Assembly (NCBI GenBank): GCA_964483245.1
Contig: CAZABP010000022.1
Coordinates: 1-64,000, forward strand
Reading direction: 5' to 3'
Source of the DNA: an uncultured candidatus Brocadiaceae bacterium
Lineage (GTDB): Bacteria > Planctomycetota > UBA1135 > UBA2386
DNA: 64,000 nucleotides
The notes under the pieces were generated by a model. It searched no databases and was not told the origin of the DNA. It saw only the letters and a list, made by a program, of their open reading frames with translations. A program made the position numbers and the translations under genes. Shown piece after piece: positions 22,520 through 40,600 of this stretch (position 1 is the stretch's first letter; the number at the start of each line of letters is the position of its first letter).

Positions 22520-25288
22520 TCACGGCAGCCAGTTGCCGGCGCTGCCCTTGACCAGGCCGTCGGCGTCCAGCCACGAGTCGAGCACGATGCCGGTCGCCGG
22601 GTCGCTGAGCCGGCGGATCAGCGTCGCGCCGAGCGGGCCGGCGAACGTCGGGTCGGTTGCGCCGTCGCGCAGGTTCGGCACGTTCGGCACGACCATCGCG
22701 TGGTTGTTCGACGCGGTAGCGACGCCGGTCGGCAGCACGACGCGGTCCAGGTTGTAGTGGACGAGTGCCGGGTTGAAGCGCGTGTTCGGCGCGACATTGA
22801 ACGGCTGGCGGTTGGCGTCGCTGTCGAGCGGGTTGATCGGTCGGCCCTGCCGGTCGAACAGGAACAGACCGCTGCCGAGGCCGGCGACCATGTGCACCCA
22901 GATCGGCGAGTTCATCTGGTTGCCCGGATTCTGACCGATGTGCGATTGCAGCATCGTGAAGTCCAGGTTGCCGAAGTCGTTGTTCGCCATCTGCGTGCGG
23001 AACGTGCTGTAGATCCCGCTGTAGTTGGTCATGCCCTCGCTGGTCAGGTGGCACGCGACGCAATAGCGCGGTCCTTCATTGCTCGAAGTGACCTTGCCGC
23101 GGATCGAGTGCGCCAACATCGTGTTGAACCCCAGCGCCGGGAACTGCACGCCCGGATTGGCGCCGCGCCCCTCACGGTCGGAGAAGCAGAACACCTCCGA
23201 CCGCGCGTTGTTCAGGTCCTTGTATTGGAAGAACACCTTCGTGTTGGCGTTGAACTGCTCGATCTTGTTGTCCGGACCGACGCCGAGCTGGAACGGCACC
23301 GGTGACTGGTAGACGAAGTCGGCGTCCTCTTCCTCGAACACGATCCGCTGTCCGGTGATGTTCGAGAAGTTGTTGCCCTCGTCGTATTCACCCTGCAGGT
23401 GGCAGCCGATGCAGGTGTTGGTCCACGCCGAGTGGCACGACGCGCAGCTCATGTTGTCCATGTGGCTGAAACCGGCGGTGACGCCGCCAGCCTGCTGCGG
23501 GCCGATGCCGGTCGCCGCATTGCCGTCGGCGCGGCCCATCGAATACGACGCCTTGGCGCTGTAGACCGGCTGGTTCGTGAACGGGTGCAGCTTGCCACTG
23601 TCGACGACGACGTCCTTGGTCTGCACGACGAACAGGCGCCGGCCGCTGGTGCGGCTGGTCAGATACAGGTTGCCGTCCGCCTCCTTGACGACGTGGCGCA
23701 GCACCCTGCCGGCACCATCGAAGGCCATCTCCTTCTGTGTGCCGTCGTAGGCGGTGCCGACCATGGTCGGCGCATACGTGTCGACCTTGCCGTGGCACGA
23801 CTCGCAACGGATCTTGACGGCGTGCTCCATGCGGCTCGCGATCTGCTCGCCGTTCGGATCTCCGACGTCACCGCCGTGCACTTCGTAGCTGCCGTGGCAG
23901 TCGATGCAGCCCATGCCGGCCGCGTAGTGCACGTCCTCCGGCGTGTCGTCGCGGTTGTCGCCGTCGTAGTCCTCCATCAGGATGTACTGGTTCGCGTTGC
24001 GGCCGTTGAACGTGTTGTTGTCGACGACCGGATCGAACAGGCGCGTGTCGCGCGCGGTGTTGGTGAACCGGACCGGGTTGGCCGGGTACTGCACGCGGTT
24101 GCGCAGGTTTTGGTTCTGATCGAGGCGGATGCCCCAGTACTGCATGACCGTGCGGTTCGAACCCTGGTGGCAGCCGGCGCAGGTGTGGTCATCGATGCCC
24201 TCCTGCTGCATGCCGTTTGCCAGCGTTTTCTTGACGCTCAGGATCCGGTGCGCGCGCACGTGCGCGCGCTCCGGCTCGTCGATGTCATCCGGATCGATCG
24301 GTTCGGTCCGGTCGACGTTCGGGTCGCGGCTGCCGGTGCGCCCACCCAGGCTGTACGGCATGTGGCACGCCGTGCAGCCGGACGAGCGGTAGTCACCGGC
24401 GCGGTTGTTGGCGCCAGCGCTGCCGAGGTGGCAGTCACCGCAGGTGAATGCGATCTGCTCGTGGTACAGGTGCGCCAGCGGCGAGTTGCTGATCACGCTG
24501 CCGTCGGGATTCACGTCGTCGAGCAGCCCGGCCGCGTTGTAGGCCTGGTTGCGGAACATCCCCTGCCCCGGCGTGCCGCGCACGCTGTAGACCGGGTACT
24601 CCTTCAGCTCGCCGATCATGCCGAATGGCGCGGTCGCCGGGTTGAAGTCCGGGTCGACGACGGCGCGGAAGCCGAGGTCGTTCGCCGTGTCCAGGTACAG
24701 CCCGACGTGCGCCGGCAGGTGGTTGTCGTGGCCGGCCGCATACGTGGCGCCACCGAGGATGCCCATCTCGGTCGCCAGTGGACTGCCGGCGACGGAGTCG
24801 GCGTGGTTCTGGTGGCACTGCCCGCACGAACGCGCCTGCGTGACCACACGCAGGTCACCCGGCTGAATGAACTGCAGATAGTCGATCGCCGTGTACGTGC
24901 GCCCGTTGGCCGTGTAGTCCGGGAACTTGTCGATGCCGGCCAGAGTCAGCCGGTTGAAATACGCCAGCTGGTTGACGCGGAGGTTCTCGCGGTCGCCGAT
25001 CTGCGGCGGCGGCGGCACGTGGCTCTCCTCCTTCGTGGCGCCGTCCGGATTGCCGCCGTGACAGGTCGTGCAGGTCAGGTTGTCGGCACCTGGGAATGGG
25101 TGGGGGTTCTCGAGCCCCGGCCCGCTGTAGTCGTTGCCGGTCGACCCGTTGTGGCAGGTCATGCACGACTGCGCAGTCGAGGCGGAACCGTCCCGTCCGC
25201 CGCCGCTGCATGCGGCCAGCAGCGCGAATGCGCTGAGCGAAACGGCACGGAACCACGGAACGCGGAGACCGCGGCGCGGATTGCTCAT
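22520..25288 (-). CDS. multiheme c-type cytochrome lipoprotein (11 CXXCH)
   Basis: ATG at 25288; lipobox LLAACSGG; 11 CXXCH motifs (CMTCH, CTTCH, CGQCH, CGDCH, CTACH, CAGCH, CIDCH, CESCH, CASCH, CIGCH, CVACH); 922 aa. Confidence 0.8.
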   Translation of the reverse strand: MSNPRRGLRVPWFRAVSLSAFALLAACSGGGRDGSASTAQSCMTCHNGSTGNDYSGPGLENPHPFPGADNLTCTTCHGGNPDGATKEESHVPPPPQIGDRENLRVNQLAYFNRLTLAGIDKFPDYTANGRTYTAIDYLQFIQPGDLRVVTQARSCGQCHQNHADSVAGSPLATEMGILGGATYAAGHDNHLPAHVGLYLDTANDLGFRAVVDPDFNPATAPFGMIGELKEYPVYSVRGTPGQGMFRNQAYNAAGLLDDVNPDGSVISNSPLAHLYHEQIAFTCGDCHLGSAGANNRAGDYRSSGCTACHMPYSLGGRTGSRDPNVDRTEPIDPDDIDEPERAHVRAHRILSVKKTLANGMQQEGIDDHTCAGCHQGSNRTVMQYWGIRLDQNQNLRNRVQYPANPVRFTNTARDTRLFDPVVDNNTFNGRNANQYILMEDYDGDNRDDTPEDVHYAAGMGCIDCHGSYEVHGGDVGDPNGEQIASRMEHAVKIRCESCHGKVDTYAPTMVGTAYDGTQKEMAFDGAGRVLRHVVKEADGNLYLTSRTSGRRLFVVQTKDVVVDSGKLHPFTNQPVYSAKASYSMGRADGNAATGIGPQQAGGVTAGFSHMDNMSCASCHSAWTNTCIGCHLQGEYDEGNNFSNITGQRIVFEEEDADFVYQSPVPFQLGVGPDNKIEQFNANTKVFFQYKDLNNARSEVFCFSDREGRGANPGVQFPALGFNTMLAHSIRGKVTSSNEGPRYCVACHLTSEGMTNYSGIYSTFRTQMANNDFGNLDFTMLQSHIGQNPGNQMNSPIWVHMVAGLGSGLFLFDRQGRPINPLDSDANRQPFNVAPNTRFNPALVHYNLDRVVLPTGVATASNNHAMVVPNVPNLRDGATDPTFAGPLGATLIRRLSDPATGIVLDSWLDADGLVKGSAGNWLP

Positions 25289-25425: not shown

Positions 25426-25487
25426 GCTTGGTGTCAGACTCCAACCCTCCCGAATCGGGAGGGATGGTGTCAGACTCCAACCCTCCC
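25426..25487. repeat. compound palindromic repeat (two TGGTGTCAGACTCCAACCCTCCC units around a CCCTCCC-GAATC-GGGAGGG hairpin)
   Basis: Direct 23-nt duplication plus nested inverted repeats; between the 11-heme cytochrome and AlkD-like gene starts. Confidence 0.8.
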
Positions 25488-25520
25488 ATGCCGGCGGGTC
25501 CTGCGGGCTAGACTCCGCGA

Positions 25521-26390: not shown

Positions 26391-26455
26391 GGGAGGCTTG
26401 GGGTCAGACTCCATCCCTCCCGTTTCAGGAGGCATGGAATCTGACGCCAACCAGG
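26391..26455. repeat. compound palindromic repeat, second copy
   Basis: GGGAGGCTTGGGGTCAGACTCCATCCCTCCC-GTTTCA-GGAGGCATGGAATCTGACGCCAACC starts 1 nt after the AlkD-like stop. Confidence 0.8.
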
Positions 26456-26520
26456 GTCCGGGCTGGCAATAGGCTGCCATTGCGGGCGCAATTGCGTCTG
26501 ATCCCTGCTGGCGGACACCG

Positions 26521-28761: not shown

Positions 28762-28827
28762 GGAGGTATGGGGTCTGACCCCAACCCTCCCGAAACGGGA
28801 GGCTTGGGGTCAGATTCCAAGCCTCCC
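28762..28827. repeat. compound palindromic repeat, third copy
   Basis: GGGAGGTATGGGGTCTGACCCCAACCCTCCC-GAAACG-GGAGGCTTGGGGTCAGATTCCAAGCCTCCC in the convergent region between flotillin and the 7-heme cytochrome. Confidence 0.85.
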
Positions 28828-28845
28828 ATTGCGGCGCTCAGAGGA

Positions 28846-29493
28846 TCAACGGATCCGCGCGTGGTTCCAGCTCGTCGTCACGTGGCAGCGTTGGCAGTCG
28901 TCGACGAAGCCGAGACCGATGTGCGGCGGGTTGTTGGCCTGCTGGACGTCGTCGACGTGACACGCGACGCACGCCGTGTCGGTCGGATAGATCCGCCCGG
29001 TCCAGATGCCGGGATGGCAGCGGTGGCAGCCGACCGCGAGGTGGGCGCCGGTCAGCGGGAACCGGGTCCGGTTGTGCATCTCGATCTGCCCCTCCGGCAT
29101 CCAGGTGCGCTGGCCGTGGCACTTGGTGCAGTCCTTGCCGAGCTCGCCTTGATGGAAGTCCTCGTGGCAGCCGGCGCAGCCGCGCGCGGCGAACACTTCG
29201 ACCGGCCCGCGGTCGTTGTGGCAACGAAGACACCGTGCCTGCGCGTGCGCGCCGACCAACGCGACCCCGGTCTCACGCTCGTGATCGAAGCGGAAGTCGT
29301 CGACCAGCACGTTCCAGGTCCGGCCGACGTGGCACAGGCTGCAATCGGCCGGGAACGAGTCGTGCGGCAGCACCGGACCGAGCGCCGACCACCAGCGATG
29401 CAGCGCGCCGTCGCGCGGCCCCTGCACCATGCAGCCGACCATGATCAGCAGCGGCAGCAGCGCCGCGATCAGCAGGTTTCTCTTGGTGCGCAT
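28846..29493 (-). CDS. 7-heme c-type cytochrome, paired-CXXCH type
   Basis: Signal peptide with possible lipobox (LIMVGC); 7 CXXCH; F-x-H...G-x-H...CxxCH repeats like the doubled-CXXCH domains of metal-reducer cytochromes. Confidence 0.8.
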   Translation of the reverse strand: MRTKRNLLIAALLPLLIMVGCMVQGPRDGALHRWWSALGPVLPHDSFPADCSLCHVGRTWNVLVDDFRFDHERETGVALVGAHAQARCLRCHNDRGPVEVFAARGCAGCHEDFHQGELGKDCTKCHGQRTWMPEGQIEMHNRTRFPLTGAHLAVGCHRCHPGIWTGRIYPTDTACVACHVDDVQQANNPPHIGLGFVDDCQRCHVTTSWNHARIR

Positions 29494-29506: not shown

Positions 29507-31219
29507 TCAGAACTTCTGTTGCATGTAGAACCCGATCGACCACGCCAGATCCTCGCCGATCAGATCGAGCTGCCCATAGACGGACAGATCCTGACCCGCC
29601 GCGGTGTAGAAGCTGCGGCTGCCGCGGAACCGGTGTTGATCGAGGTCCGCGACGTCGCTCGGAAAACCGAACTCGTGCACGTGCGAGTACTCGTACAACC
29701 ACTGCCACATCCCATCGTTCGCGTCGGTCTCCCAGATGACCCGGCCGCCGATCACGGCGACCGCGTCCCCGGTGTTGCCGAACAGCGCGACCGTCGTGCG
29801 GCTCCGTTCGCCGAACCAGTCCTTGCGCTCGAACCCGAGCTCCCCGGCGACGCCTTCATGGTCGTCGTCGTTCCACGCCGCCAGATACGTGTGCAGATCC
29901 GTCTCCCGCGACCAGCGCCACCAACCGTCGAACGACAGCAGGTCCGACTCCGCGCGCGCGATCTCGGCCGCCCAGGTCGGCAGATAGTCCTGCCGCAGCA
30001 CCTCCGGATACGCATTGCGCCGCCACGCGAACTGCAAACGGTTGCCGTTCTCATAGCTGCGTGACGCCGATGCGACCGCCTGCGTCAGCTCGAGGCCGGT
30101 CCCCTTGTTGACGTCGTTGCCGCGGTAGTAGTCGATCCAGAACGTGCCGTGGAGCTGCCACGCATCCAGCGGCAGGTAGTGCCCCTTCAACACCACGAGA
30201 TCCCGGTCCGAATCGCCGTCGTGCCAGGTCTTCTGGAAGCCGCCGCCGAACGAGATCGTCTGCGCGAGGTCCGCCGACCACACGTAGTACAGCGACGCCT
30301 GCACGTCGTCCCAGCCGTCCAGGTTGTCGTTCGGCTCCGGCATGAAGCCGACCGCGGCACCGAACCGGTCGCCGAAGTGTCCGCGGATGCCCCACTCGAT
30401 CCCGTCCAGGATCCCGAACTCCGGCATCCCGACCTGCAGGAAACGCCCGAGCTTCCACATCTGCGGCGAGAACCGGTCCCCGCCCAGCCGGTACGAGAAG
30501 TCCCGCACCAGCCCATTGCCGCCGTCGGCGTCGTTGTATTCGGTGCGTGAGTTCAGCTCGCCGTCGAAGCGCAGCTCGCCGCCGAGATGGAACGGATTCG
30601 TCAACCGCGCATCGATGCCGGCGCGGATGAACGACTCGTCGAAGTCGCTCTCCGGATGCTTGGTCGCATCCCCGATCACGTACAGCCGCCCGCTCAGACC
30701 CGCGAGCCGTTCACTCGGGGGCACCGCGTCGACCTGCGCCAGCAGCGGTTTGTCAGGCGTGTAGTTCTCGTCCCGGTTGCGCCACTCCGGCTTGGTCGGA
30801 TCCTGAGGTGGTTCCTGGCCGGGTTGCTGCGGCTGCGGCTGCTGCGGGTCGACCGGTGATGGCTCCACCGGCGGCGGTGGCGGCACCGGGCGCGGCTGTT
30901 CGAACCGGCCGACCGGTACCAGCACTTCGCCGCGCGTGCCGGGTGCCGGCGACACGGCGCGCAGCTGCAGCTCGACCAATGCGCTGCGCTCGTCGATCCG
31001 CGCGATCGTGCCGTGCAGGATCTCACCGCTGCGCGGGCGCAGTTCGACGGCGTCGCCGACCTCGATCCGGTCGTTGCGCCCACGGTCGACCGTGACCGTC
31101 CCGGGTGTCGGCGACGAGACGACGCGTAGCTCGAGGCGGCGATGCGTCAGGTCCTGTGCCAGCAGCGGCGCAGCGAGGAACAGCAGGGCCGCCGGCGTCC
31201 AGCGCATCGCTGGCTTCAT
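29507..31219 (-). CDS. outer-membrane beta-barrel protein (porin-like), candidate porin of a porin-cytochrome complex
   Basis: Signal peptide MKPAMRWTPAALLFLAAPLLAQD; Pro/Gln-rich linker; alternating amphipathic strands rich in Gly/Tyr/Trp/Asp; C-terminal aromatic residue (..MQQKF). Confidence 0.65.
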   Translation of the reverse strand: MKPAMRWTPAALLFLAAPLLAQDLTHRRLELRVVSSPTPGTVTVDRGRNDRIEVGDAVELRPRSGEILHGTIARIDERSALVELQLRAVSPAPGTRGEVLVPVGRFEQPRPVPPPPPVEPSPVDPQQPQPQQPGQEPPQDPTKPEWRNRDENYTPDKPLLAQVDAVPPSERLAGLSGRLYVIGDATKHPESDFDESFIRAGIDARLTNPFHLGGELRFDGELNSRTEYNDADGGNGLVRDFSYRLGGDRFSPQMWKLGRFLQVGMPEFGILDGIEWGIRGHFGDRFGAAVGFMPEPNDNLDGWDDVQASLYYVWSADLAQTISFGGGFQKTWHDGDSDRDLVVLKGHYLPLDAWQLHGTFWIDYYRGNDVNKGTGLELTQAVASASRSYENGNRLQFAWRRNAYPEVLRQDYLPTWAAEIARAESDLLSFDGWWRWSRETDLHTYLAAWNDDDHEGVAGELGFERKDWFGERSRTTVALFGNTGDAVAVIGGRVIWETDANDGMWQWLYEYSHVHEFGFPSDVADLDQHRFRGSRSFYTAAGQDLSVYGQLDLIGEDLAWSIGFYMQQKF

Positions 31220-33288
31220 CGGCGTCCGGGGCCGCGACGCTGGAACGGCCGGCCGGCGTCGCCATGGCAGGCGACGCAGTCGGTCGGCAGTGGCCGGTAG
31301 CGGATGACGTCACGGTCACCCTGGCGGAACGGCTTGTGGCATGACGAGCAGGCGACGTTGCGGTGTTGGTCCCCGAGCTTGAACCGTGAGTGGACGTCGT
31401 GGCGGAACACCAGGTCGGCGAACGATTCGGCACCCCGGTGACAATTCCGGCAGTCGACCGGGCCGCCTTCGTCGAACTGACCACCGTGCGGATCCTGGTG
31501 GCAGTCACTGCAGTGCTTGCCGTAGGTGCGCGCCCAGGTGCGGCCGTGCTCGTCCGGCTCGGCGAGGCGCGCATGGCACGAGCTGCAATCGGTGCGCTGA
31601 TGCGCCCCCTGCAACGGGAACCCGGTCCACTGCGCATGATCGAACCCGTTGGGGAACGCACGGAACGACGAGTCGACGTGGCAGCGCGCGCAGCTCGTGC
31701 GCCCGAGCACGGCGCGCGGCAGGCCGAGCCGATCGAACTCCCCCTGGTGCGGATCGGCATGACAGGTCACACAACCCTTGAACTCGCCGTGCTTGCGCGC
31801 GACCGAGCCGAACCGGCGCCCGAGCTCATCCGGCTCGAGCGTGGCTTCGTGGCAGGCCGCGCAGTCCGCCTGCGCATGCGCGCCGGTCAGCGCGAACCCG
31901 GTCCAATGCCCGTGATCGAAGCCGCCCTGCGGCAGCTCGGCGAACTTCGTCGGTGCATGGCAGTGGGCGCAGGTGCCGGCCGGATTCGCACCGAGCCCGC
32001 GGGAAAAGCGGTCGAAGTAACCCCGGTGCGCATCCTCGTGGCATTGCTCGCAGCGCGACGCCGTGCCATGGAATGTCGCCGGTTGGTCCGCGTGGGCACG
32101 CTCGTGGCACTTGCTGCACTCGACCTCCGCATGGCTCGCGACCAGCGGGAAGTTCGTTGTTGCGTGCTTCTGTACCGTGAACGCATGCGGCGCGAAGTGC
32201 GTCCGCTCGTGGCAGTCGATGCAGCCGTTCGCCGCGAACGCCTTGCCGTCGAACTCACCGCGGTGCGCGTCCTCGTGGCAGCTGCGGCACTCGTCCGCCG
32301 ACCGTCCCGGATACCGCGCGTGGAACGGCTCGCGCGCCGGATCGTGACACTGCTCGCAGCGCACGGCGTCGTGCGGCAGCGCGAGCGTGAACCCGCTGCA
32401 AGCGTGCTGCTCCGGCGTCGTGAACACGCGCTCGTCGCGGAACTGCGTGTGGTTCGACGCGTGGCAGACCTTGCAGGATGATTCCGGCGCCACGCGCTCC
32501 AGCGCGGCGACGGCACTGACGAACTCCGGCCGGTGCGGCGATTCGTGGCAGTCGGCGCAACCGCGCGCGCGCCCCGCTACGCGCCGCTCGCCGATCGCCT
32601 CCAGTGAGTGCGCGTCGTCCGCCGCGTGGCACTCGCGGCAGGCGAGCTGCGCATGCCCGCCGGTCAGCGGCAGATGCCGGTCGTGACCATCCGCCGTCAG
32701 CTCGTTCCAGGCGAGCTGACCATGGCACTGGCTGCAGCTGATCTGCATCCGCCCTTCGTGCGCATCCTCGTGGCAGGACCCGCAGTCCTGCTGCAAGCCG
32801 AGGAACCGTTTCGCCCCCTTGGGCAGCTGCGCCACATCTGCGTGCGCATGGCACTGCTTGCAGTCGAGCGTCAGGTGGGTCCCGGCCATCGCGAAGCCGA
32901 CGGTCTGGTGGTCGAACTTCAGCGGATCGCCGACGCCGGCCATCGCGAAGCTGAGCCGGTTGACCAGCACGAACTCCTCGCCGTGGTGTTCGCTGTGGCA
33001 GCTGCCGCAGAGCTTCGCGCGCTCGGCGTCCAGTCCGCCGTGCAGCCCCTTGCGCTGCTCCAACTGCTCGCCGATCGGCGCGTGGCACTCCAGGCAGCTC
33101 GCGGTCATCTCGCCGAACCAGCCGCCGTGGCAGTGCGCGCAGCTGCCGAGCCCGACCAGCTCCGGTTCGCGCGCGTGCACGCCCGAGATCGGTCCGGGCG
33201 CCGTGCGCGTCAGATCGCTGGCGACGATCGCCAACACCCCGGCGAGCGACAGCGCGGCGATCCACAGCCTCGGGTGCAGGATCCTCAT
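31216..33288 (-). CDS. 23-heme c-type cytochrome, paired-CXXCH repeats
   Basis: ATG 33288 with GGAGGTGG Shine-Dalgarno (RBS) 5 nt upstream; N-terminal signal/anchor; 23 CXXCH counted; ATGA overlap with upstream gene. Confidence 0.8.
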   Translation of the reverse strand: MRILHPRLWIAALSLAGVLAIVASDLTRTAPGPISGVHAREPELVGLGSCAHCHGGWFGEMTASCLECHAPIGEQLEQRKGLHGGLDAERAKLCGSCHSEHHGEEFVLVNRLSFAMAGVGDPLKFDHQTVGFAMAGTHLTLDCKQCHAHADVAQLPKGAKRFLGLQQDCGSCHEDAHEGRMQISCSQCHGQLAWNELTADGHDRHLPLTGGHAQLACRECHAADDAHSLEAIGERRVAGRARGCADCHESPHRPEFVSAVAALERVAPESSCKVCHASNHTQFRDERVFTTPEQHACSGFTLALPHDAVRCEQCHDPAREPFHARYPGRSADECRSCHEDAHRGEFDGKAFAANGCIDCHERTHFAPHAFTVQKHATTNFPLVASHAEVECSKCHERAHADQPATFHGTASRCEQCHEDAHRGYFDRFSRGLGANPAGTCAHCHAPTKFAELPQGGFDHGHWTGFALTGAHAQADCAACHEATLEPDELGRRFGSVARKHGEFKGCVTCHADPHQGEFDRLGLPRAVLGRTSCARCHVDSSFRAFPNGFDHAQWTGFPLQGAHQRTDCSSCHARLAEPDEHGRTWARTYGKHCSDCHQDPHGGQFDEGGPVDCRNCHRGAESFADLVFRHDVHSRFKLGDQHRNVACSSCHKPFRQGDRDVIRYRPLPTDCVACHGDAGRPFQRRGPGRR

Positions 33289-35612
33289 CCGCCACCTCCG
33301 CGCAGGATCGAGCCGTACGCGAGCGCGTGGACGACGTGCACGATGACCAGCAGCACCATCAACGCGGCGACCCAGCGGTGGACGTAGCGCCACGTTGCGA
33401 GCAGCGCGCGCAGGTCCTCGTAGTGCGCCGCCATGACGGCGAGCCAGTGGGCTTCCCGCGCGAGCTGCACGGTCTCGCGGATCTGCGGCTCCGGCACGCC
33501 GTCGCGGCGACCGGTCGCCGCCAGCTCCCGCAGCAGCTTGCGCAACGAGCGTTGCATGCCGAGCAGGCCGAGCAGCCGGCCGACGAACGAAGTCCGCCAT
33601 TGCCGCTGGTGCAGCAGCGCGTCGATCCGCTCCCGCGCGAGCTGGCGGAAGCGCGCCTGCTCGCGATCCCAGTCGGCCGACGCACGGCCGAGCTTCGCCC
33701 GCACCTCGGCCAGCGCGAGCTCACGCCCGTTCGTCGCCCGTGGCACGTACGCATAGAAGTACCGCCCGATCGCGCCGCTGACGAACAGCACGACGAGACC
33801 CCAGAACGCGTGCCCGCCCGGCGTATCGCGCGGATTCATCGCCGCATGCAGCAGCGCGCACAGCAGCGCGAGCGTGCCGGTCGCGACGTGCACGCTCATC
33901 CAGGCCTGCAAGGACCCGAGCCGCACGCGCAGCCGCGGCGAGCGGCGCACCAGATACGCGAGGTTCATCACGATCAACACGACCGCGAAGATTCCGAGCC
34001 ACAGCCCAAGCCCGTCACCGGGCCGCAGCCAGGTGTGCTTCTCGCTGGTCGCGCGTTCGACCTGCGCACCGGCGTAGTAATCGAAGTGCCACAACGCCCA
34101 GGTCAGCGCGCCGAGCGACAGCACGAATCCCGCGCCGAGCGCACGCATCAGCCCGGTGCCTTGTGCTTCGGTCGCCGGCGCCTTTGGCCGCAGCTCCGGA
34201 TCGAACGAGACCCCGCTCTGCTCGAGCAGTTCGAACGGGGCGATCCCGCCGATCATCACGAACACGTCGTCGTTCGGCAGCCGCATCCGCCGCAGGCCCT
34301 GCGGAGTCTGCACGTCCAGCTCGACGGCGTCGGGGCGGATCGCGACGACTTCGCTGTGGAACACGATCTTCAGCCGGCCGGCGGCGAGATCGCGCTGCAC
34401 CCGCTCCTGGTTCTTGGTGCGGATCCGGAACAGCTCCGCCTTGCGGTACGACAGCGTGACCTGGTTGCCCGGCTGCTCGGCCAGCGCCAGCGCCGCCTCC
34501 ACCGCGCTGTCACCGCCGCCGACGACGAGGATCCGCCGGCCGGTGAACGAGTGCGCATCGAGCAGCGAGTACGCGACCTTCGGCAGCTCCTCGCCCGGGA
34601 CCCCGAGCAGCCGCGGCACGCCGCGCCGCCCGATCGCCAGGCAGACGTGACGCGCCGCCCAACGTTGCGTCACCGGGCCGGGGCCGCGTGCAGCGGTGCC
34701 GGGCCGTGCGGCAGCGGCGCCGGCCGCGACCCCTACGGCTTCGCGGCGCGCCGCCTCGTGGTGCACTTCCGCGCGAACCTCGAAGCCACCCTGCCCGTCC
34801 GCGAGCAGCCCGGTGAACACCTGCCCGTATTCGACCGGCAGCTCGTGCTCCGCCGCGATCCGCTGCCAGAGCTCGATCAGCTCCTCCTTGGTGTAGGTCG
34901 GGCGATCGAGCGCGCCGCCGAGCGGCAGCTCGACCGGCATCGTCAACACCAGCTTGCGGCGCGGGTACTTCGCGACCGTGCCGCCGAGCCACTGCTCCTG
35001 TTCGAGCGCGATCGCGCGCAGGCCCAGGCGTCTGGCTTCGAGCAGGCACGCGATTCCGGCCGGTCCGGCACCGACGACGACGAGATCGAACCGCTCGTCG
35101 CCAGGGATCGGCTCGGCGGCGACGCGACGTGCGACCTCGGCCGCGACCGCGGTGCCCTGCTCGACCGCGCTCTTGATCAACGCATGCGCGGTCACCTCGC
35201 CGGCGAGGAACAGCCCGGGCGAGCCGATCGCTTCGAGGCTCTCGTCGAGGACCGGGACGTCGCGCCGCGTCTCGAGGTTCGTCAGCGTGACCGTGATTGC
35301 GCCGACCGGACACTCCCGTTCGCACTCGGCGACGCCGACGCAGCGCGCCGGATTGACGACGGCGGCCTGCCCGTGCACGAGCGCCAGCACGCCTTCCTCC
35401 GGACAGACCTGCACGCACGTGCCGCAGCCGAGGCAGCGCGAGAGGTCGATCGTCGGGTGCTGCAGCTTCGTCTCGGCGCCGCCGAGCTCGTGCGAGCGAT
35501 CGCGTTCGGCGACCGACTTCGCCATCCGGCGCAGGTCGGTCCGGCGCGCCCACACGCTCAGGAACGCGATCCCGAGCGCGAAGACGAGCGTCAGCAGCAG
35601 GCTCCAGCTCAT
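33285..35612 (-). CDS. membrane-bound ferredoxin-flavoprotein oxidoreductase with C-terminal ferric-reductase-like bis-His transmembrane domain
   Basis: N-terminal TM helix; two 4Fe-4S motifs (CLGCGTCVQVCP, CVGVAECERECP); FAD/NAD(P) Rossmann motifs (VVVGAGPAGIA, LVVGGGDSAVEAA); C-terminal about 250 aa with 4-5 TM helices carrying H-x13-H pairs. Confidence 0.6.
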   Translation of the reverse strand: MSWSLLLTLVFALGIAFLSVWARRTDLRRMAKSVAERDRSHELGGAETKLQHPTIDLSRCLGCGTCVQVCPEEGVLALVHGQAAVVNPARCVGVAECERECPVGAITVTLTNLETRRDVPVLDESLEAIGSPGLFLAGEVTAHALIKSAVEQGTAVAAEVARRVAAEPIPGDERFDLVVVGAGPAGIACLLEARRLGLRAIALEQEQWLGGTVAKYPRRKLVLTMPVELPLGGALDRPTYTKEELIELWQRIAAEHELPVEYGQVFTGLLADGQGGFEVRAEVHHEAARREAVGVAAGAAAARPGTAARGPGPVTQRWAARHVCLAIGRRGVPRLLGVPGEELPKVAYSLLDAHSFTGRRILVVGGGDSAVEAALALAEQPGNQVTLSYRKAELFRIRTKNQERVQRDLAAGRLKIVFHSEVVAIRPDAVELDVQTPQGLRRMRLPNDDVFVMIGGIAPFELLEQSGVSFDPELRPKAPATEAQGTGLMRALGAGFVLSLGALTWALWHFDYYAGAQVERATSEKHTWLRPGDGLGLWLGIFAVVLIVMNLAYLVRRSPRLRVRLGSLQAWMSVHVATGTLALLCALLHAAMNPRDTPGGHAFWGLVVLFVSGAIGRYFYAYVPRATNGRELALAEVRAKLGRASADWDREQARFRQLARERIDALLHQRQWRTSFVGRLLGLLGMQRSLRKLLRELAATGRRDGVPEPQIRETVQLAREAHWLAVMAAHYEDLRALLATWRYVHRWVAALMVLLVIVHVVHALAYGSILRGGGG

Positions 35613-35670: not shown

Positions 35671-36480
35671 TCAGCGGCGCGTGGCCGTGCTGCGCGGCGT
35701 CGTGGTCGGGTTCGGGTTCGGTTTGGGGTTCGGGTTCGGCGTCGTCTGCATCGACGGCTCCAGCGGCGCGGCGCCGGACGGCGCGGCCGGGTCCATCGTC
35801 GTCGCCGTGGCCGAGTTCGCGATGTAGTCGCGTGCCGTCTCGAGGCAGCGGTTGAACCGTGTGTCCAGCTCGAGCGACAGATCGGCGATCGCGCGGGCGT
35901 CGTCCTTGATCTCGGTCAGCGCGCCGGAGTTGAAGTCGTGGCGCAGGAAGTACGCCAGGTCGCGCGCCTGCTGGTTGAAGCTGTCGTAGCCGGCTGCGGC
36001 GCTCTTGGCGTGTGCGATCAGGCTCTGGTAGCGCTGCCAGGTCATGTCGTAGCGCGCCTGGCTGCGCCGGCGCAGCTGCAGGTTCGAGATCTCGAGCAGG
36101 TCCTGGTTCCAGTGGTCGAACACCGGCGTCGCGGCCGACTGCAGCTCGCGCACGGTGCCGTGCAACCGCTCTGCCTGCTGCTCCGACTCCTGGATCGCCC
36201 GCTGGTACTCCCCGAACGCGGCGCTCGGGTCACCCTTTGGATTCGCCGACGTCAGCGCTGCCATCAGATCGGTCGTGCTCTGAACCTTCTGCTTGCTCAG
36301 TTCCGCCTCGACGTGGACGCGCTCGACCCAGGTCATCAGCGCATCGATGCGCTCGACGGTCGGGCTCGTCGCGGGGCCGCTGCCGACCAGCCCAGAAACC
36401 CAGCTGCAGGCACCGAGGCCCGCCAGCGCAAGCACGCCGGCAGACGTCGCCAAGATCTTCGTTGCTCTCACTCTCGTCAC
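35671..36480 (-). CDS. lipoprotein (hypothetical) with C-terminal PNPNPKPNPNP repeat
   Basis: Lipobox LAGLGAC; coiled-coil-like body; C-terminus encoded by a GGGTTC hexamer tandem repeat. Confidence 0.5.
   Translation of the reverse strand: MTRVRATKILATSAGVLALAGLGACSWVSGLVGSGPATSPTVERIDALMTWVERVHVEAELSKQKVQSTTDLMAALTSANPKGDPSAAFGEYQRAIQESEQQAERLHGTVRELQSAATPVFDHWNQDLLEISNLQLRRRSQARYDMTWQRYQSLIAHAKSAAAGYDSFNQQARDLAYFLRHDFNSGALTEIKDDARAIADLSLELDTRFNRCLETARDYIANSATATTMDPAAPSGAAPLEPSMQTTPNPNPKPNPNPTTTPRSTATRR
35705..35743. repeat. GGGTTC-type hexanucleotide tandem repeat (about 6 units)
   Basis: GTCGGGTTCGGGTTCGGTTTGGGGTTCGGGTTCGGCGTC encoding PNPNPKPNPNP at the C-terminus of lipoprotein 35671-36480. 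Confidence 0.7.
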
Positions 36481-36611: not shown

Positions 36612-37664
36612 ATGGGATCGCAGTCATCGGCCTGGCTCGGGCTCCTGCTGTTGGCAGGATGCGGGGGTGCGGAGCGGACGCACCGGATCGGCCCGCCGCG
36701 CGTCGTGCCGGGGGAGCTGAAACTCGAAGTCCCGCCGGCAGTCCGGCATGGATTCGCGATGCAGGCACCGGATCCGGCGGCGTCGGCGCAGGCTTCGCTC
36801 GCCTACGACCTGCCACCGGGCTGGGTCACCGGCGCGCCGGGCGGGATGCGGATGCTGAGTTTCACGGCACCGGGGGGCATCGACGTGTCGGTGACCTCGC
36901 TCGGCGGCGCGGGCGGTGGGCTCGCAGCGAATCTCGACCGTTGGCGCGAACAGCTCGGACTCGCACCACTGACGCCGGCGGAGCTGGCGGCGTTGCCGCG
37001 TCGCACGGTGCTCGGCAGCGACGACGCGGTCGCGATCGACTTCCGCGGCGCCTGGCGCGGCGGCGGTCAGGAGATCGCGCAGGCGCGGATGCTTGGCATC
37101 GTCGTGACGCAGCCGGGTGGCACGCTGTTCGTCAAGGCCGTTGGGGCCGCGACCGCCGTCGATGCACAGGTGCGCGCATTCGACGCGTTCGTCGCGAGCC
37201 TGCGGCCGGCGACGGCGGCCGCACCTGCGGCTCCGGGTGGTGCTGCGGCGCCGCCGGCGACGGGCGGTGATCTCGCGTGGAGCGTGCCCTCGGGCTGGAC
37301 CAGTGAACCGGGCGCGGCGATGCGCGCGGTCACGCTGCGGCCGGGCGGAGATCGGGAGCTCGATGCCTATGTCGTCGTGCTCAGCGGCGCGGCCGGTGGC
37401 GTCGCCGCAAACCTCGACCGTTGGCGCGAGCAGCTCGGGCTGCCGAAGCTGACGCAGGCCGAGCGTGATGCGCTGCCGAGCATCGACATGCTCGGCGCGC
37501 CGGCGCCGCTGTTCTTCGCCGAGAACGGCAAGCTCGCCGTGCTCGGGACGGTCGCGCGGCTCGGGCAGGACAGCCTGTTCGTCAAGCTGGTCGGACCGGC
37601 CACGAAGGTGCCGCAGCATCGCGATGCGTTCGTGCGGTTCTGCCAGAGCTTGGTGCTGCGATGA
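36612..37664 (+). CDS. lipoprotein with internally duplicated about 120-aa domain (hypothetical)
   Basis: Lipobox LLLAGCGG; two copies of a module containing GG(L/V)AANLDRWREQLGL(A/P)..T..E..ALP; stop overlaps ccsBA start. Confidence 0.5.
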   Translation: MGSQSSAWLGLLLLAGCGGAERTHRIGPPRVVPGELKLEVPPAVRHGFAMQAPDPAASAQASLAYDLPPGWVTGAPGGMRMLSFTAPGGIDVSVTSLGGAGGGLAANLDRWREQLGLAPLTPAELAALPRRTVLGSDDAVAIDFRGAWRGGGQEIAQARMLGIVVTQPGGTLFVKAVGAATAVDAQVRAFDAFVASLRPATAAAPAAPGGAAAPPATGGDLAWSVPSGWTSEPGAAMRAVTLRPGGDRELDAYVVVLSGAAGGVAANLDRWREQLGLPKLTQAERDALPSIDMLGAPAPLFFAENGKLAVLGTVARLGQDSLFVKLVGPATKVPQHRDAFVRFCQSLVLR

Positions 37665-40600
37665 GTTGGCTGCTGCAAGGATTCGCGGTGCTCGCGTCGT
37701 ATCGGCTGGCGTTCGTCTGCCTGGCCGGGCTGTTCGTGACGACCTGGCTCGGAACGCTGTACCAGGTCGACCACGGGCTGTGGGCGGCGCAGTGGGCGTA
37801 CTTCGAATCGTGGCTGCTGTGGCAGCGGCTCGGGGATCTGTTCGTTGGCAGCGGGATGCCGGCGTGGCTCGACGACAGCAGGCTCGCGCTGCCGTTGCCG
37901 GGCGGGATGCTGTGGATGTCGCTGCTCGGCGTCAGTCTCGTCTGCGGCGGCTTCGTGCGGCTGTTGCGCTCGATGCGCGGTGGCGCGCGGCTGATCCCAC
38001 GCGCCGGCGTGTTGGTCGTGCACTGCGGGATCGCGCTGCTGTTGATGGCTGGCTGGGTGCGGTTCGCGCAGGCCAGCGAGGGTTCGATCACGCTGACCGA
38101 GGGGCAGACGGCACGCAGCTATGCCAGCTTCCACGACTGGGAGCTCGTCGTCGCGCGGCAGGTCGGCGATGGCGAGGTCGAAGAGCACCTGATCCCGGGC
38201 GCGCGGTTCCTGGACCTGGAGGACGGCGAGCAGGCGGAGTTCGTCTCCGACCTGCTGCCGTTCCGGATCGTCGTCGTGCAGGCGGCGCGCAACAGCGACG
38301 TGCGCCGGCACGGCGGTGAGTTCCTGCTGCGGCGCAAGCTCCCGCTGGCGGAGAACGAGCGCAACATGGCTGGTTGCGTGGTCGCGCTGCGCGATGCGAG
38401 CGGCGGTGAGCTGCGCGGCGTGCTGTGCGGCACCGACACCGCACCGTGGACGGTCGGCATCGGTGACGAACGCTGGGCGCTGGCGCTGCGCAAGGAGACC
38501 TGGCCGCTGCCGTTCGCGTTGCGGCTGGAGGACTTCACGGCGGAGATGCACCCTGGCACGACGAAACCGAAAGCCTTCCGCAGCGATGTCACGGTGCGGA
38601 CCGCTGCCGGCGAACGACGTACCAGGATCGAGATGAACGAGCCGCTGCGGCTCGGCGACGTCGTCGTGTACCAGAGCACCTGGGGTCAACAGGGAGGGAT
38701 GCCGGGGGCGCCGCTGTTCTCCGGGTTCCAGGTCGTGCGCAATCCGGCGGATCAATGGCCGCTGTACGGCTGCATCCTGATCGCGCTCGGGATGCTGCTC
38801 GCGTTCGGTTGGACGCTGGTGCGGTTCCTGACGCGCGAGACGTCGCGGGTCCGCGGCGCCGGTGCACTGCTGCTGGCCGGCGTGTTCGCCGCGCCATTGA
38901 GCACGCAGGCGCAGGAACCGCGCGCGCAGCCGTGGCCGGCCGCGGCGCTCGAGCATTGCGCGCGGCTGCCGGTGCAGGAGGACGGCCGCGTCAAGCCGCT
39001 GTTGACGCACGTCTCGTATCTGCTGCTGCGGATCAACGGCAAGCGCACGGTCAGCCTCGGTGCCGACCCGAGGTTCGGCGCCGCGGCCGGTGCGTCGCTC
39101 GACCCGGTTGCGTGGGCGCTCGACGTGCTGCTGTTCCCCGAGCAGGCGGACCTCTACCCGGTGTTCCAGGTGCAGACCAGCGAGGTGATCGATGCGATCG
39201 GCCTCGAGCACGACGGCAAGCGCAAGCGCGACCGGTACTCGTTCGCGGAGCTGCGCCCCGGTCTGCCGCAGTTGCTGGCACTCGCACAGCGGTTCGAGCG
39301 GATCGCCGAGAAGGACCGCTCCGGGATCGAGCAACAGCTCGTGATGCTGGCGCGCAACATCGCCGACTACGACCGGCTGGCGCGTTCGCTGGATGCTGCC
39401 CGGCTGCGGTTCCAGCCCGAAGGGGACGCGACGCTGCTTGCGCTGCTGGGCGGCCGCAGCGAGCTGCGGTTCTCGGAGCTGCTGCCGCATTGGCCGGCGC
39501 TGCAGACGGCGCGCGAGCAGAGCGCGGGCGCCAAGCGCTGGATCGCGCAGGCGCAGGGGATCGGCCGCGACGATGGCCTGCTGCACGTGCTGCCGCCACC
39601 GGATCCGGCGCAGGCTGCGTGGTTGCTGCCGGCCGATCTCGTGCGCGAGCATGCCCCGCCGGTCGCCGAGCCGGTGCTGGCGCTGCTGGCGCTGTTCGAG
39701 GAGCTGGTCGATGCGCGGCAGCAGCCGGCCCGGTTCGCTGCGGTCGCCGGCAGGCTGGACGAGGCGCTGCACGCGCAGCTGCGCGCGCGCGGCGAAGGCG
39801 CGAAGCTCGACCTCGAAGTCTCCTATCTGCAGGCGGACTGGTGCTGGCGCGCGCTGCTCGCGTTCGGACTCGCGCTGGTCGTGACCGCGGTCTCCTGGCT
39901 GCGACCGCGCAGCCGCCTGCTCGGCGGTGCGGCCTGGCTCGCGACGCTGCTCGGCGCCGGCCTGCTGGTGACCGGCATCGTGATCCGCTGCATCCTGCGC
40001 GATCGGCCGCCGATCAGCGGGCTCTACGAGACGATCCTGTTCGTGACCGCGGCGATCGTGCTGACCGGGCTCGTCGTCGAGCGGTTCTGGCGCCGCCGCG
40101 TGCTGTTGTCGCTGGCGGCTCTGCTCGGGTTCGCCGGGATGTTCCTGGCCGGACGGTTCGAAGCGAGCGAAGCACGCGACACGATGCCGACGCTGCAGGC
40201 CGTGCTCGACACGAACTTCTGGCTCGCGACGCACGTCACGGTCATCAACCTCGGCTACGCCGGTGCATTGCTCGCCGGCTTCCTGGCGCACCTGTATCTG
40301 CTGCGCGGGCGGCGGCGCGATCCGGCGTTCAGCGCCGCGATCGCACGCGCGACGTACGGCACGCTGTGCTTCGCGACGTTGTTCACGACCGTCGGCACGA
40401 TCCTCGGCGGGATCTGGGCGAACGATTCGTGGGGCCGGTTCTGGGGTTGGGATCCCAAGGAGAACGGCGCGCTGATGATCGTGCTGTGGAACCTGATGAT
40501 CCTGCACGGGCGGCTCGGCGGGATCGTCCGCGAGCACGGGATCGCGATGCTGGCGGTCGCCGGCAACGTGGTCGTCGTGTTCTCCTGGTTCCACACCAAC

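Follow-up and report, generated by a model that had tools for sequence, protein, structure and literature searches.

In Shewanella and Geobacter, electrons leave the inner membrane for the multiheme cytochromes of the periplasm through CymA (NapC/NirT), ImcH, CbcL and CbcBA, which oxidise menaquinol and carry c-type hemes. Transmembrane electron transfer without an obligatory quinone step is known from the Hmc and Tmc complexes of sulfate reducers, in which a membrane cytochrome b links a cytoplasmic Fe-S protein with a multiheme cytochrome c of the periplasm. A further type is represented by the NOX/FRE/STEAP enzymes (FRD; PF01794), which pass electrons from NAD(P)H via flavin to two b hemes stacked across the membrane. 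MsrQ (YedZ), which is a genuine FRD-family protein containing one heme and a flavin, is a membrane heme b protein that transfers electrons from the cytosolic NAD(P)H flavin reductase Fre to the periplasmic molybdoenzyme MsrP. To our knowledge, the MsrQ-Fre system has no Fe-S domain, and its flavin reductase has no dedicated gene linkage.

PCC3 porin-cytochrome clusters were discovered in iron oxidisers, are widely assumed to be uptake conduits carrying electrons inward, and are described in the literature as functionally unverified systems of four components with a proposed link to quinones. Their conserved inner membrane protein (IMP) has ~300 aa and five transmembrane (TM) helices, with W-x3-H-x13-H on TM3 and TM5 and SGxxG on TM4 (PMC5566968). 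He et al. (2017) compared this IMP with FRD and cytochrome b and proposed it to be quinone-active by analogy with bc1 and hydrogenase cytochrome b subunits, so that neither the membrane module and its H-x13-H pairs nor the likeness to FRD is new (PMC5566968). No literature on a flavoprotein partner of the PCC3 IMP was found. Here we describe a gene in a 64,000-nucleotide stretch of DNA (the window) in which such an IMP forms the C-terminal domain of a 775-aa Fe-S flavoprotein fusion. We consider it slightly better than an even bet that the fusion serves as the entry point into a PCC3-type conduit at the inner membrane, in a NOX-like chain from NAD(P)H to cytochrome that would bypass quinones.

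Domain structure of the fused Fe-S flavoprotein

The open reading frame named by the sequence-only reading was present on the minus strand, running from an ATG at 35612 to a TGA at 33287-33285 (Table 1). From N- to C-terminus, the 775-aa product comprises a TM anchor, a dicluster-type Fe-S domain, an FAD/NAD(P) flavoprotein and a domain of five TM helices bearing two H-x13-H pairs, an order that had been claimed previously and was borne out by the Pfam scan and the TM helices. It had also been called inverted with respect to NOX enzymes; this is correct for the 775-aa protein and not as a rule, being one of several arrangements, with separate genes in most phyla. More than 7900 homologues were obtained, the best matches being full length at ~60% identity and mostly from Planctomycetota, and the AF2 model had a pLDDT of 87 and a pTM of 0.77. 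In contrast to CymA, ImcH, CbcL and CbcBA, the protein has no CXXCH motif and possesses its own NAD(P)H-type flavoprotein. Judged by its sequence, it is a membrane-anchored Fe-S flavoprotein joined to a PCC3 IMP, two partners that are usually separate.

Table 1. Features of the fusion gene and its neighbours, in positions of the window
Feature	Position	Strand	Basis or remark
Whole gene, fused Fe-S flavoprotein + PCC3-type IMP	33285..35612	-	ORF, translation (775 aa)
N-terminal TM anchor, aa 1-24, predicted N-out/C-in	35541..35612	-	Kyte-Doolittle 2.27
Dicluster-type ferredoxin domain, aa 51-110	35283..35462	-	Fer4_6/7/10 above Pfam cutoffs
FAD/NAD(P) flavoprotein, two-dinucleotide-binding type, aa 175-477	34182..35090	-	Pyr_redox_3/Pyr_redox_2, dinucleotide motifs
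PCC3-type IMP domain, aa 488-775, 5 TM, predicted two b hemes	33288..34151	-	AF2, PCC3 motifs
IMP third TM helix, aa 568-589, W571-x3-H575-x13-H589	33846..33911	-	Conservation
IMP cytoplasmic helical insert TM4-TM5, aa 623-740, ~118 aa	33393..33746	-	AF2 helices
IMP fifth TM helix, aa 741-766, W741-x3-H745-x13-H759	33315..33392	-	Conservation
690-aa cytochrome c, 23 CXXCH, N-terminal signal/anchor	31216..33288	-	PCC3 periplasmic multiheme cytochrome
570-aa secreted protein, putative outer-membrane porin	29507..31219	-	Signal-peptide-like N-terminus, C-terminal Phe (...QQKF)
215-aa cytochrome c, 7 CXXCH	28846..29493	-	Motif count
Large cytochrome c, 11 CXXCH, candidate outer-surface	22520..25288	-	Orthologues in L001, L003, L085
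DUF2959 lipoprotein-like gene, 269 aa	35671..36480	-	PF11172 E 4.5e-19; directly upstream of fusion

No K or R precedes the N-terminal helix and seven are found in aa 22-45; a twin-arginine motif is absent from this anchor. An aligned hydrophobic helix was present in 58 of the 73 flavoprotein sequences compared, which were mostly split (unfused) versions. The Fer4 dicluster match of the following domain spans aa 53-107 (Fer4_7, 37 bits; Pfam cutoff 27), so that the dicluster type of the ferredoxin proposed earlier was upheld. Its two [4Fe-4S] clusters were not, as the motifs C60xxC63xxC66xxxC70P and C91xxV94xxC97xxxC101P comprise seven Cys instead of eight, with Val94 at the middle-Cys position of the second motif. 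All seven Cys were invariant in 120 close homologues, and position 94, Val in the 775-aa protein, is His in 72/76 family members. With this set of residues, one [4Fe-4S] and one three-Cys cluster, the latter probably [3Fe-4S], appear more likely than two [4Fe-4S] clusters.

The predicted FAD/NAD(P) flavoprotein segment was recovered in the Pfam scan by matches to Pyr_redox_3 (E 1.6e-32) and Pyr_redox_2 (E 2.8e-21). The FAD motif (G181xG183xxG186), the NAD(P)H motif (G365xG367xxA370, with Y389-R390...R396) and both R390 and R396 are conserved. The domain is YpdA/thioredoxin reductase (TrxR)-like and not of the FNR type as in NOX. Its nearest structural relatives are thiol-disulfide reductases; the TIGR04018 score of the 775-aa protein was 134.5 (cutoff 339.9). 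The active-site Cys of the bacillithiol disulfide reductase YpdA/Bdr lies in GPCG, which reads GPAG in the 775-aa protein, and neither YpdA/Bdr nor the TrxR-type ferredoxin-NADP reductases YumC/IruO share its membrane anchor and fused ferredoxin. The flavoprotein domain contains neither a CxxC nor any further conserved redox Cys, conservation of C189 and C324 being limited to the close clade. The lack of a CxxC makes a disulfide substrate unlikely.

The C-terminal membrane module

Where 4-5 TM helices with two H-x13-H pairs had been anticipated, five were identified (aa 488-508, 534-557, 568-589, 598-622 and 741-766), with the pairs on the third and fifth. The domain fits the PCC3 signature (W571/H575/H589, S612-G-A-I-G616, W741/H745/H759) and by these motifs matches the previously published "conserved inner membrane protein" of PCC3 porin-cytochrome clusters. 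Conservation of the His pairs was as predicted: H575, H589, H745 and H759 were invariant in 120/120 close homologues. In a diverse set of 107 sequences (the query and 106 representatives of 50% clusters, 25-57% identity), H575, H589, H759, W571 and W741 were each conserved in 107/107 and H745 in 106/107, and G613 and G616 were likewise invariant or nearly so; alignment A1 showed the same for all eight residues. The AF2 model of aa 495-775 reached a pLDDT of 91.6, and the module occurs in 1375 clusters at 50% identity, many of them standalone proteins of ~290 aa. These data support a membrane module that is conserved, independent and equipped with two invariant pairs of His. According to the charge distribution, one His of each pair is located near each membrane face. 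The insert between TM4 and TM5 has a net charge of +5.8, and its ~118-aa length is kept in standalone IMPs; it may be where the Fe-S domain docks.

The only database similarities of the IMP were with cytochrome b families that bind two hemes (DUF4405, Ferric_reduct, Ni_hydr_CYTB and cytochrome b6 helix B). Ferric_reduct scored 17-21 bits, short of its cutoff of 28, and a profile search matched the fifth TM helix marginally (E 0.016) to the heme-binding helix B of cytochrome b6. No curated family threshold was reached by the domain, fold matches were to generic helical bundles, and Foldseek gave no significant match for the IMP against the PDB. Of the earlier assignment to an FRD/NOX/MsrQ-type di-heme domain, the His pairs and the two-heme cytochrome b similarities remain, and family membership is not supported. 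The IMP shares with FRD enzymes the His pairs on the third and fifth helices, their H-x13-H spacing and the in/out orientation of TM1-TM5. However, it has five contiguous TM helices instead of six and a sub-threshold Ferric_reduct score, and its flavoprotein, N-terminal or a separate protein, is of the TrxR/YpdA type rather than FNR-like. The chain of the 775-aa protein additionally includes an Fe-S domain, and the proposed acceptor is a multiheme cytochrome c instead of O2 or Fe(III). The split flavoprotein and IMP versions parallel the two-component, NOX-like MsrQ/Fre system. Hmc and Tmc likewise wire a cytochrome c through a cytochrome b to an Fe-S protein, but belong to unrelated families (NarI-like cytochrome b, HdrD-like CCG protein) and lack both a flavin/NAD(P)H module and a porin or outer-membrane part.

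The cytochrome b similarities also bear on a different, rather unlikely reading, in which the IMP would be a quinone-reactive cytochrome b exchanging electrons of the quinone pool with the periplasmic cytochrome. The flavoprotein would reduce quinone locally with NAD(P)H or supply the same b hemes in parallel, and the module would add to quinol-dependent entry instead of taking its place. The flavoprotein and NDH-2 are members of one superfamily, and the IMP shows weak similarity to the quinone-reactive Ni_hydr_CYTB and to cytochrome b6 helix B. A binding pocket could be made up by conserved residues in its periplasmic-side loop (Y512, Y513, R520 and H526), and quinone reactivity was proposed by He et al. 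(2017) by cytochrome b analogy (PMC5566968). On the other hand, Fe-S clusters are one-electron relays that suit heme and would be unneeded for hydride transfer to quinone, and the fusion together with the ~118-aa cytoplasmic insert suggests a dedicated cytoplasmic redox partner. No recognised quinone-binding motif was noted in the IMP.

Gene neighbourhood and distribution

As in PCC3, the ~290-aa, five-TM module with the same W-x3-H-x13-H and SGxxG motifs has as neighbours a ~21-27-heme periplasmic cytochrome, a porin or porin-like protein and another large cytochrome. The system differs from PCC3 in the fusion, in its Planctomycetota-like host instead of a Proteobacterium, and in the gene order of the window (fusion, 23-heme cytochrome, porin-like protein, 7-heme cytochrome, 11-heme cytochrome). 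The ATG of the 23-heme cytochrome gene (33288-33286) overlaps the TGA of the fusion gene in an ATGA junction that suggests translational coupling. Both an overlap and the 23 hemes had been recognised by the sequence-only reading, which had the order reversed; the cytochrome lies downstream. This cytochrome is homologous to the 20-26-heme cytochromes adjoining IMP or flavoprotein in 65 loci. A second ATGA overlap connects its gene to that of the porin-like protein, which yielded no Pfam match and keeps the same position in Planctomycetota loci, followed by the 7-heme cytochrome gene also in loci L001 and L085. The 11-heme cytochrome, an orthologue of 922-925-aa cytochromes in L001, L003 and L085, has plus-strand genes inserted between it and the other cluster genes; its ORF reaches 25489 and its start is uncertain, Met68 at 25288 being likelier. 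The DUF2959 gene occupies the same position in L001, L003 and L004 and is possibly co-transcribed with the fusion gene. A divergent gene for a CcsBA cytochrome c biogenesis fusion adjoins the cluster in the window; this neighbourhood was not seen in L001.

The presence of CcsBA, the exceptionally heme-rich partner cytochromes and the relationship of the flavoprotein to thiol-disulfide reductases would fit an accessory or maturation factor, providing periplasmic reducing power that keeps heme iron or apocytochrome thiols reduced for cytochromes of 20-67 hemes. We regard this as very improbable: the flavoprotein has neither CxxC nor conserved redox Cys, with C189 and C324 varying outside the close clade, the CcsBA neighbourhood was not seen in L001, and the IMP gene is consistently located directly before one specific ~21-heme cytochrome gene, a redox-partner pattern.

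Among 80 genome loci from many phyla, an IMP was encoded within 10 kb of the flavoprotein in 70, and 60 contained a cytochrome with at least 10 hemes; the loci were picked by flavoprotein similarity to the query, which introduces a modest bias toward co-occurrence. Within the 70, the IMP was fused in 9, immediately upstream on the same strand in 30, immediately downstream in 2, divergent and adjacent in 17 and elsewhere in 12. Reciprocal look-up from standalone IMPs recovered the flavoprotein in the cluster in 3/3 cases. The search for homologues and neighbours suggested earlier showed that fusions occur mainly in Planctomycetota, and that elsewhere flavoprotein and IMP are separate genes, often with the IMP first, while the flavoprotein-IMP-cytochrome linkage recurs in many phyla. 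In a Gallionella MAG, the flavoprotein gene divergently adjoins a canonical PCC3 cluster encoding a 286-aa IMP with the same motifs as the IMP domain of the 775-aa protein, 21-heme and 25-heme cytochromes and a 750-aa porin-like protein. Taken together, these results support coupling of the IMP module to a 20-26-heme periplasmic cytochrome and an Fe-S flavoprotein across many phyla.

The adjacency to PCC3 in Gallionella and in other sulfur-/iron-oxidiser lineages could also reflect an inward chain, in which an extracellular donor (Fe(II), minerals or a cathode) would feed PCC3 and the flavoprotein would pass the electrons on to NAD(P)+ or an acceptor resembling ferredoxin in the cytoplasm. Ferredoxin-NADP reductases of the TrxR type work reversibly, and PCC3 was found first in iron oxidisers and is widely taken as an uptake conduit. 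We nevertheless consider this direction improbable. On bioenergetic grounds, electrons at potentials in the range of Fe(II) would have to move uphill to reach NAD(P)+ (about -320 mV), and their movement from outside to inside would oppose the membrane potential, with no coupling device evident. The hosts are mostly Planctomycetota, Bacteroidota, Ignavibacteria and Acidobacteriota, groups not known to oxidise iron lithoautotrophically, and both PCC3 clusters of S. lithotrophicus ES-1 were down-regulated on Fe(II) (PMC8788666). The inward flow proposed for PCC3 in iron oxidisers is hard to reconcile with reduction of NAD(P)+.

Proposed electron path

In the favoured NOX-like reading, the N-terminal helix would anchor a cytoplasmic unit consisting of the YpdA/TrxR-like FAD flavoprotein, binding NAD(P)H as donor, and the two-cluster ferredoxin domain. 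Two b hemes would be held between the third and fifth helices of the IMP, the one near the cytoplasm ligated by H575 and H745 and the one near the periplasm by H589 and H759. Electrons would flow outward from NAD(P)H via FAD and the Fe-S clusters to the cytoplasmic-side and then the periplasmic-side heme b, reach the 23-heme periplasmic cytochrome, and then move on to the porin-like protein and the 7-heme and 11-heme cytochromes. A multiheme cytochrome wire would replace O2 as the acceptor of a NOX-like enzyme, and the quinone pool would be bypassed by an IMP having no quinone site. If true, this would suggest that widespread PCC3 conduits are tied directly to NAD(P)H and not to quinones.

The fusion gene and its cytochrome cluster

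The window has a G+C content of 70%, and its real genes are overlapped by many long spurious ORFs. The gene that the sequence-only reading had called, fusing a ferredoxin, a flavoprotein and a membrane domain, is real, lies on the minus strand and encodes a protein of 775 aa. It joins the following 23-heme cytochrome gene in an ATGA junction. The overlap of the two genes had been seen correctly; their order had not, as it is the ATG of the cytochrome gene that overlaps the TGA of the fusion gene, which places the cytochrome downstream. Structural models from AF2 had a pLDDT of 87 and a pTM of 0.77 for the whole protein, and a pLDDT of 91.6 for the C-terminal region.

Parts of the fusion protein and features around its gene in the window
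Feature	Position	Strand	Remarks
Fusion gene	33285..35612	-	775 aa; ATG 35612, TGA 33287-33285
N-terminal hydrophobic helix	aa 1-24		
Dicluster-type ferredoxin domain	aa 53-107		Pfam: Fer4_7 37 bits (cutoff 27), Fer4_10 36 bits (cutoff 25.5)
Two-dinucleotide-binding flavoprotein	aa 175-477		Pyr_redox_3 E 1.6e-32, Pyr_redox_2 E 2.8e-21
Ala/Gly/Arg-rich insertion	~34668-34763; aa ~284-315	-	
TM helices of the membrane domain	aa 488-508, 534-557, 568-589, 598-622, 741-766		AF2 models
Helical insert	between fourth and fifth TM helices		~118 aa; AF2 models
23-heme cytochrome	31216..33288	-	690 aa, 23 CXXCH; directly downstream of fusion gene
REP-like palindromic repeat	25385-25496, 26391-26466, 28761-28836		tandem pairs
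NfeD-like membrane protein	26521-27117	+	
Band_7/SPFH protein	27163-28761	+	E 4e-30
DUF2959 lipoprotein-like gene	35671-36480	-	directly upstream of fusion gene
Secreted protein	36612-37664		350 aa; precedes CcsBA gene
CcsBA	37661-40762	+	1033 aa, ResB-like/CcsA-like fusion

Downstream of the 23-heme cytochrome follow a putative porin (a secreted protein of 570 aa that has no Pfam match and ends in Phe), a 7-heme and an 11-heme cytochrome, and the same gene order occurs in related Planctomycetota contigs. The NfeD-like and Band_7/SPFH genes lie within this cluster on the opposite strand; apart from this insertion the cluster is syntenic. Three intergenic sites with a REP-like palindromic repeat (GGGAGG..TGGxGTCAGACTCCAACCCTCCC) bracket the plus-strand genes between the 7-heme and 11-heme cytochrome genes, which are adjacent to each other in the related contigs. 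Nearby, also on the opposite strand, is a gene for the System II cytochrome c biogenesis protein CcsBA. The position of the DUF2959 gene is kept in three Planctomycetota loci (L001, L003 and L004), and a literature search on DUF2959 returned nothing relevant.

The membrane domain and the PCC3 inner-membrane protein

For the membrane domain (aa 488-775), the C-terminal 281 aa of the protein were searched against 1.84 billion cluster representatives (E <= 1e-3), which yielded homologues in 1375 clusters. Many of these are standalone proteins with a length of 270-335 aa, and there are further fusions as well. In several of the latter (P0175, P0183, P0194, P0201, P0218 and P0235; 380-560 aa and 1125 aa) the module is also C-terminal, and their N-terminal parts have no Pfam match save for one weak PepSY_TM; further partners of the membrane module may therefore exist.

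Two H-x13-H pairs had been noted in the sequence-only reading, which would have been refuted by a lack of their conservation; both are conserved. H575 and H589 lie on the third TM helix, H745 and H759 on the fifth. All four are invariant in 120/120 close homologues, and among 107 diverse sequences spanning the whole domain (25-57% identity) H575, H589 and H759 are present in all and H745 in 106. Also conserved in this diverse set are W571, W741 and G613 (107/107 each), G616 and P624 (106/107 each) and R617 (105/107). Counted across the family alignment, the loop between the second and third helices carries a net charge of +3.6 and the insert between the fourth and fifth one of +5.8, while the N-terminal helix of the protein is preceded by no positive charge and followed by seven. 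The positive-inside rule thus predicts a cytoplasmic location of the Fe-S and flavin domains, with H575 and H745 near the cytoplasmic and H589 and H759 near the periplasmic face of the membrane. Such a placement would suit a stack of two bis-His hemes through the membrane.

PCC3 gene clusters were described as comprising a porin, one extracellular and one periplasmic multiheme cytochrome (median of 34 and 21 hemes, respectively) as well as a conserved hypothetical protein of the inner membrane (IMP; ~300 aa) that has five TM helices, two W-x3-H-x13-H motifs, which lie on the third and the fifth helix, and SGxxG on the fourth (He et al. 2017, PMC5566968). The domain in the window has the corresponding size and five TM helices, both W-x3-H-x13-H motifs (W571/H575/H589 and W741/H745/H759) and the SGxxG motif on TM4 (S612-G613-A-I-G616), and its neighborhood likewise holds a 23-heme cytochrome, a putative porin, and 7-heme and 11-heme cytochromes. 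In proteobacterial loci, a profile including the domain matched IMPs that adjoin cytochromes with 21-24 hemes (E mostly between 1e-37 and 1e-47), and it also matched the PCC3 IMP of Gallionella. Based on these motifs and profile matches we concluded that the membrane domain is the PCC3 IMP, a module published in 2017.

The family to which this module belongs is less readily assigned. Ferric_reduct scored 17.4 bits with the full protein and 21.1 bits with the domain alone, below the Pfam cutoff of 28, and the sub-threshold Pfam matches (Ferric_reduct, DUF4405, Ni_hydr_CYTB, Cytochrome_B) fall mostly on the last helix. Among 50 family members, such sub-threshold matches were obtained to DUF4405 in 40, to Ferric_reduct in 24 and to Ni_hydr_CYTB in 16. 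Sequence searches of NCBIfam and PDB with the C-terminal domain gave nothing meaningful, and Foldseek of the domain model against PDB returned no match at E <= 0.001; in a PDB profile search, the one match was marginal (E 0.016) and fell on cytochrome b6, at the helix B that bears its two heme His. As all of these matches are weak and point to cytochrome b families, the domain is best described as a distant relative of two-heme cytochrome b proteins, with no demonstrated membership in the ferric reductase domain (FRD, PF01794) or NOX families. FRD proteins (NOX/FRE/STEAP/MsrQ) have six contiguous TM helices, with the heme His on TM3 and TM5. In the domain, the His pairs occupy the corresponding two helices and are oriented alike, but it comprises five helices, and the fusion's sixth is the N-terminal anchor, far off in the sequence. 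The FNR-like FAD/NADPH domain that in NOX follows the membrane domain is absent; in its place a Pyr_redox_3, YpdA/TrxR-type flavoprotein lies N-terminal of the membrane domain. The initial interpretation as a ferric-reductase-like protein is partly supported: a predicted di-heme membrane module coupled to the cytochrome chain was retained, FRD membership was not established, and the NOX architecture did not apply.

He et al. likened the IMP to both FRD and cytochrome b and proposed that it is a quinone-active di-heme cytochrome, hypothesizing two b-type hemes (PMC5566968). A quinone-reactive IMP would fit the distant kinship with cytochrome b proteins; we consider this proposal rather unlikely for the present system. 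Unlike the inner-membrane multiheme quinol dehydrogenases of the CymA/NapC-NirT, ImcH and CbcL types, the 775-aa protein has no CXXCH motif for c-type hemes.

The Fe-S flavoprotein and its linkage to PCC3 across phyla

The N-terminal part of the fusion had been read as a 2x[4Fe-4S] ferredoxin, a domain (PF12838 and related) that has two complete CxxCxxCxxxCP motifs and hence eight Cys. The ferredoxin domain passes the Pfam thresholds of Fer4 families, but only seven Cys are present in it (the Cys of the whole protein are at positions 60, 63, 66, 70, 91, 97, 101, 189, 324 and 585). Its second motif reads C91-x2-V94-x2-C97-x3-C101-P, so that the second cluster would have only three Cys ligands as V94 takes the place of a Cys. 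In 72/76 sequences of the wider family (95%; loci L003-L082) this motif is C-x2-H-x2-C-x3-CP, the His being replaced by Val or Ile in 73/120 sequences of the clade of the window, and at Cys63, which comes second among the Cys of motif 1, 32/76 have Ser, Thr or Ala. This variation of motif residues suggests that ligation of the clusters is non-standard and variable. H80 was rejected as a compensating ligand, since its presence does not depend on which of His, Val or Ile occupies position 94.

In the flavoprotein domain, neither of the glycine motifs varies among 76 loci, and Y389-R390 and R396 are 93-100% conserved. We take the latter residues to be analogous to the HRRxxxR motif of thioredoxin reductase, and this likeness suggests NADPH as the nucleotide. 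The best NCBIfam match was YpdA (TIGR04018) with 134.5 bits, far below the cutoff of 339.9. In YpdA, the Cys of the GPCG motif is the active-site residue; an alignment to 7a76 places GPAG in the fusion where YpdA/Bdr have the Cys of GGGPCG. This exchange, together with the lack of a CxxC motif, makes a disulfide substrate unlikely. A function as thiol-disulfide reductase was accordingly rejected, C189 and C324 being kept in the close clade only, and a role of the protein in cytochrome maturation appears very improbable to us. Export of the flavoprotein to the periplasm by the Tat pathway was likewise dismissed, as the protein lacks a twin-arginine motif and has its positive charges behind the helix. 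The domain of the window also contains an Ala/Gly/Arg-rich insertion, aligned to a gap in 119/120 homologues; its pLDDT in the AF2 model is low (<50 for aa 292-303), and it is probably a lineage-specific disordered loop.

One genome per species was scanned with the full-length alignment, ORFs were called in the 80 resulting loci, and these were searched with the IMP profile and the flavoprotein part. An IMP was found within 10 kb in 70/80 flavoprotein loci, a number to be read with the ranking of the loci by query similarity in mind, which modestly favors co-occurrence and is partly offset by reciprocal look-ups. The two are fused in nine loci (Planctomycetota, one Anaeromyxobacteraceae and one Thermoanaerobaculia). 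The IMP gene is directly upstream on the same strand in 30 (Bacteroidota, Ignavibacteria, Acidobacteriota, Marinimicrobia and others), directly downstream in two, divergent and adjacent in 17, mostly from Proteobacteria and Gemmatimonadota, and elsewhere in the locus in 12. The ten loci with no IMP include several short contigs. Cytochromes with at least 10 hemes occur in 60/80 loci. In loci of clear arrangement, the gene directly after that of the IMP or of the fusion encodes a cytochrome with 20-26 hemes, and in 65 loci this cytochrome is homologous to the 23-heme protein of the window. Some proteobacterial loci (L022, L057, L080, L081 and L050) encode an enormous second cytochrome with 47-67 CXXCH in a single ORF, the 67-heme ORF occurring in a Ca. 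Thiodiazotropha MAG.

Look-ups that set out from standalone IMPs showed the flavoprotein to be in the cluster in 3/3 cases: in a Saprospiraceae genome, in a second locus as the last gene of the operon, and in a Planctomycetota-like contig (L085). The seemingly standalone IMP of the latter results from a frameshift in a 5x long-read assembly, the flavoprotein part being encoded in a different frame directly upstream. A Gallionella MAG has the flavoprotein gene divergently adjoining a canonical PCC3 cluster that encodes an IMP of 286 aa with both motifs, 21-heme and 25-heme cytochromes and a porin-like protein of 750 aa.

Later papers still treat PCC3 as four genes of unverified function. A literature search of incomplete coverage yielded no paper on the link between the flavoprotein and PCC3, so that the fusion, like the association of PCC3 with such an NAD(P)H-type Fe-S flavoprotein over many phyla, appears to be new, though it may have been described elsewhere. 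A peat preprint of 2026, which treats conserved EET clusters, deals with different systems of Acidobacteriota and Verrucomicrobiota, and a Limisphaera paper was unrelated.

Electron flow and the role of PCC3

Taking the observed domain content, conservation and genetic coupling as a starting point, we lean towards a NOX-like chain from NAD(P)H to the outer cytochromes, whose cofactors, donor and direction are inferred, as is its lack of a quinone site. Electrons of NAD(P)H would be taken up by FAD and pass over the Fe-S clusters to the heme b at the cytoplasmic side and then to that at the periplasmic side, and from there to the 23-heme periplasmic cytochrome and on to the porin and outer cytochromes. 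This outward direction is favored because it would be downhill in potential and aided by the membrane potential. PCC3 clusters are widespread, and their genes serve as markers of iron oxidation and of extracellular electron transfer. Inward electron uptake, with transfer to NAD(P)+ from Fe(II), would run uphill in both respects, and S. lithotrophicus ES-1 down-regulates PCC3 on Fe(II) (PMC8788666); we therefore regard uptake as quite improbable.

A wider reading of the NOX-like chain can be offered tentatively. PCC3-type conduits, from Planctomycetota and Bacteroidota to Gallionellaceae, may be five-component, quinone-independent systems in which an NAD(P)H-oxidizing, anchored Fe-S flavoprotein feeds the two-heme IMP directly, a bacterial NOX for extracellular acceptors. 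An unbroken cofactor chain would then lead from cytoplasmic NAD(P)H through a ~21-heme, periplasm-spanning cytochrome to the cell surface.

The fusion and the conserved adjacency of the flavoprotein over many phyla name a concrete cytoplasmic partner for PCC3 and provide a mechanism that can be tested for its connection to metabolism, one linked to NAD(P)H and possibly independent of quinones. If this mechanism is correct, PCC3 would be an electron-disposal or respiratory outlet and not an iron oxidase, and PCC3 genes in metagenomes would be read as NAD(P)H-driven electron export and not as uptake by iron oxidation. The system would represent a new type of inner-membrane entry into extracellular electron transfer pathways, a third exit from the inner membrane next to those through quinol dehydrogenases and through flavin-based systems, and a compact module for engineering electron export straight from the NAD(P)H pool.
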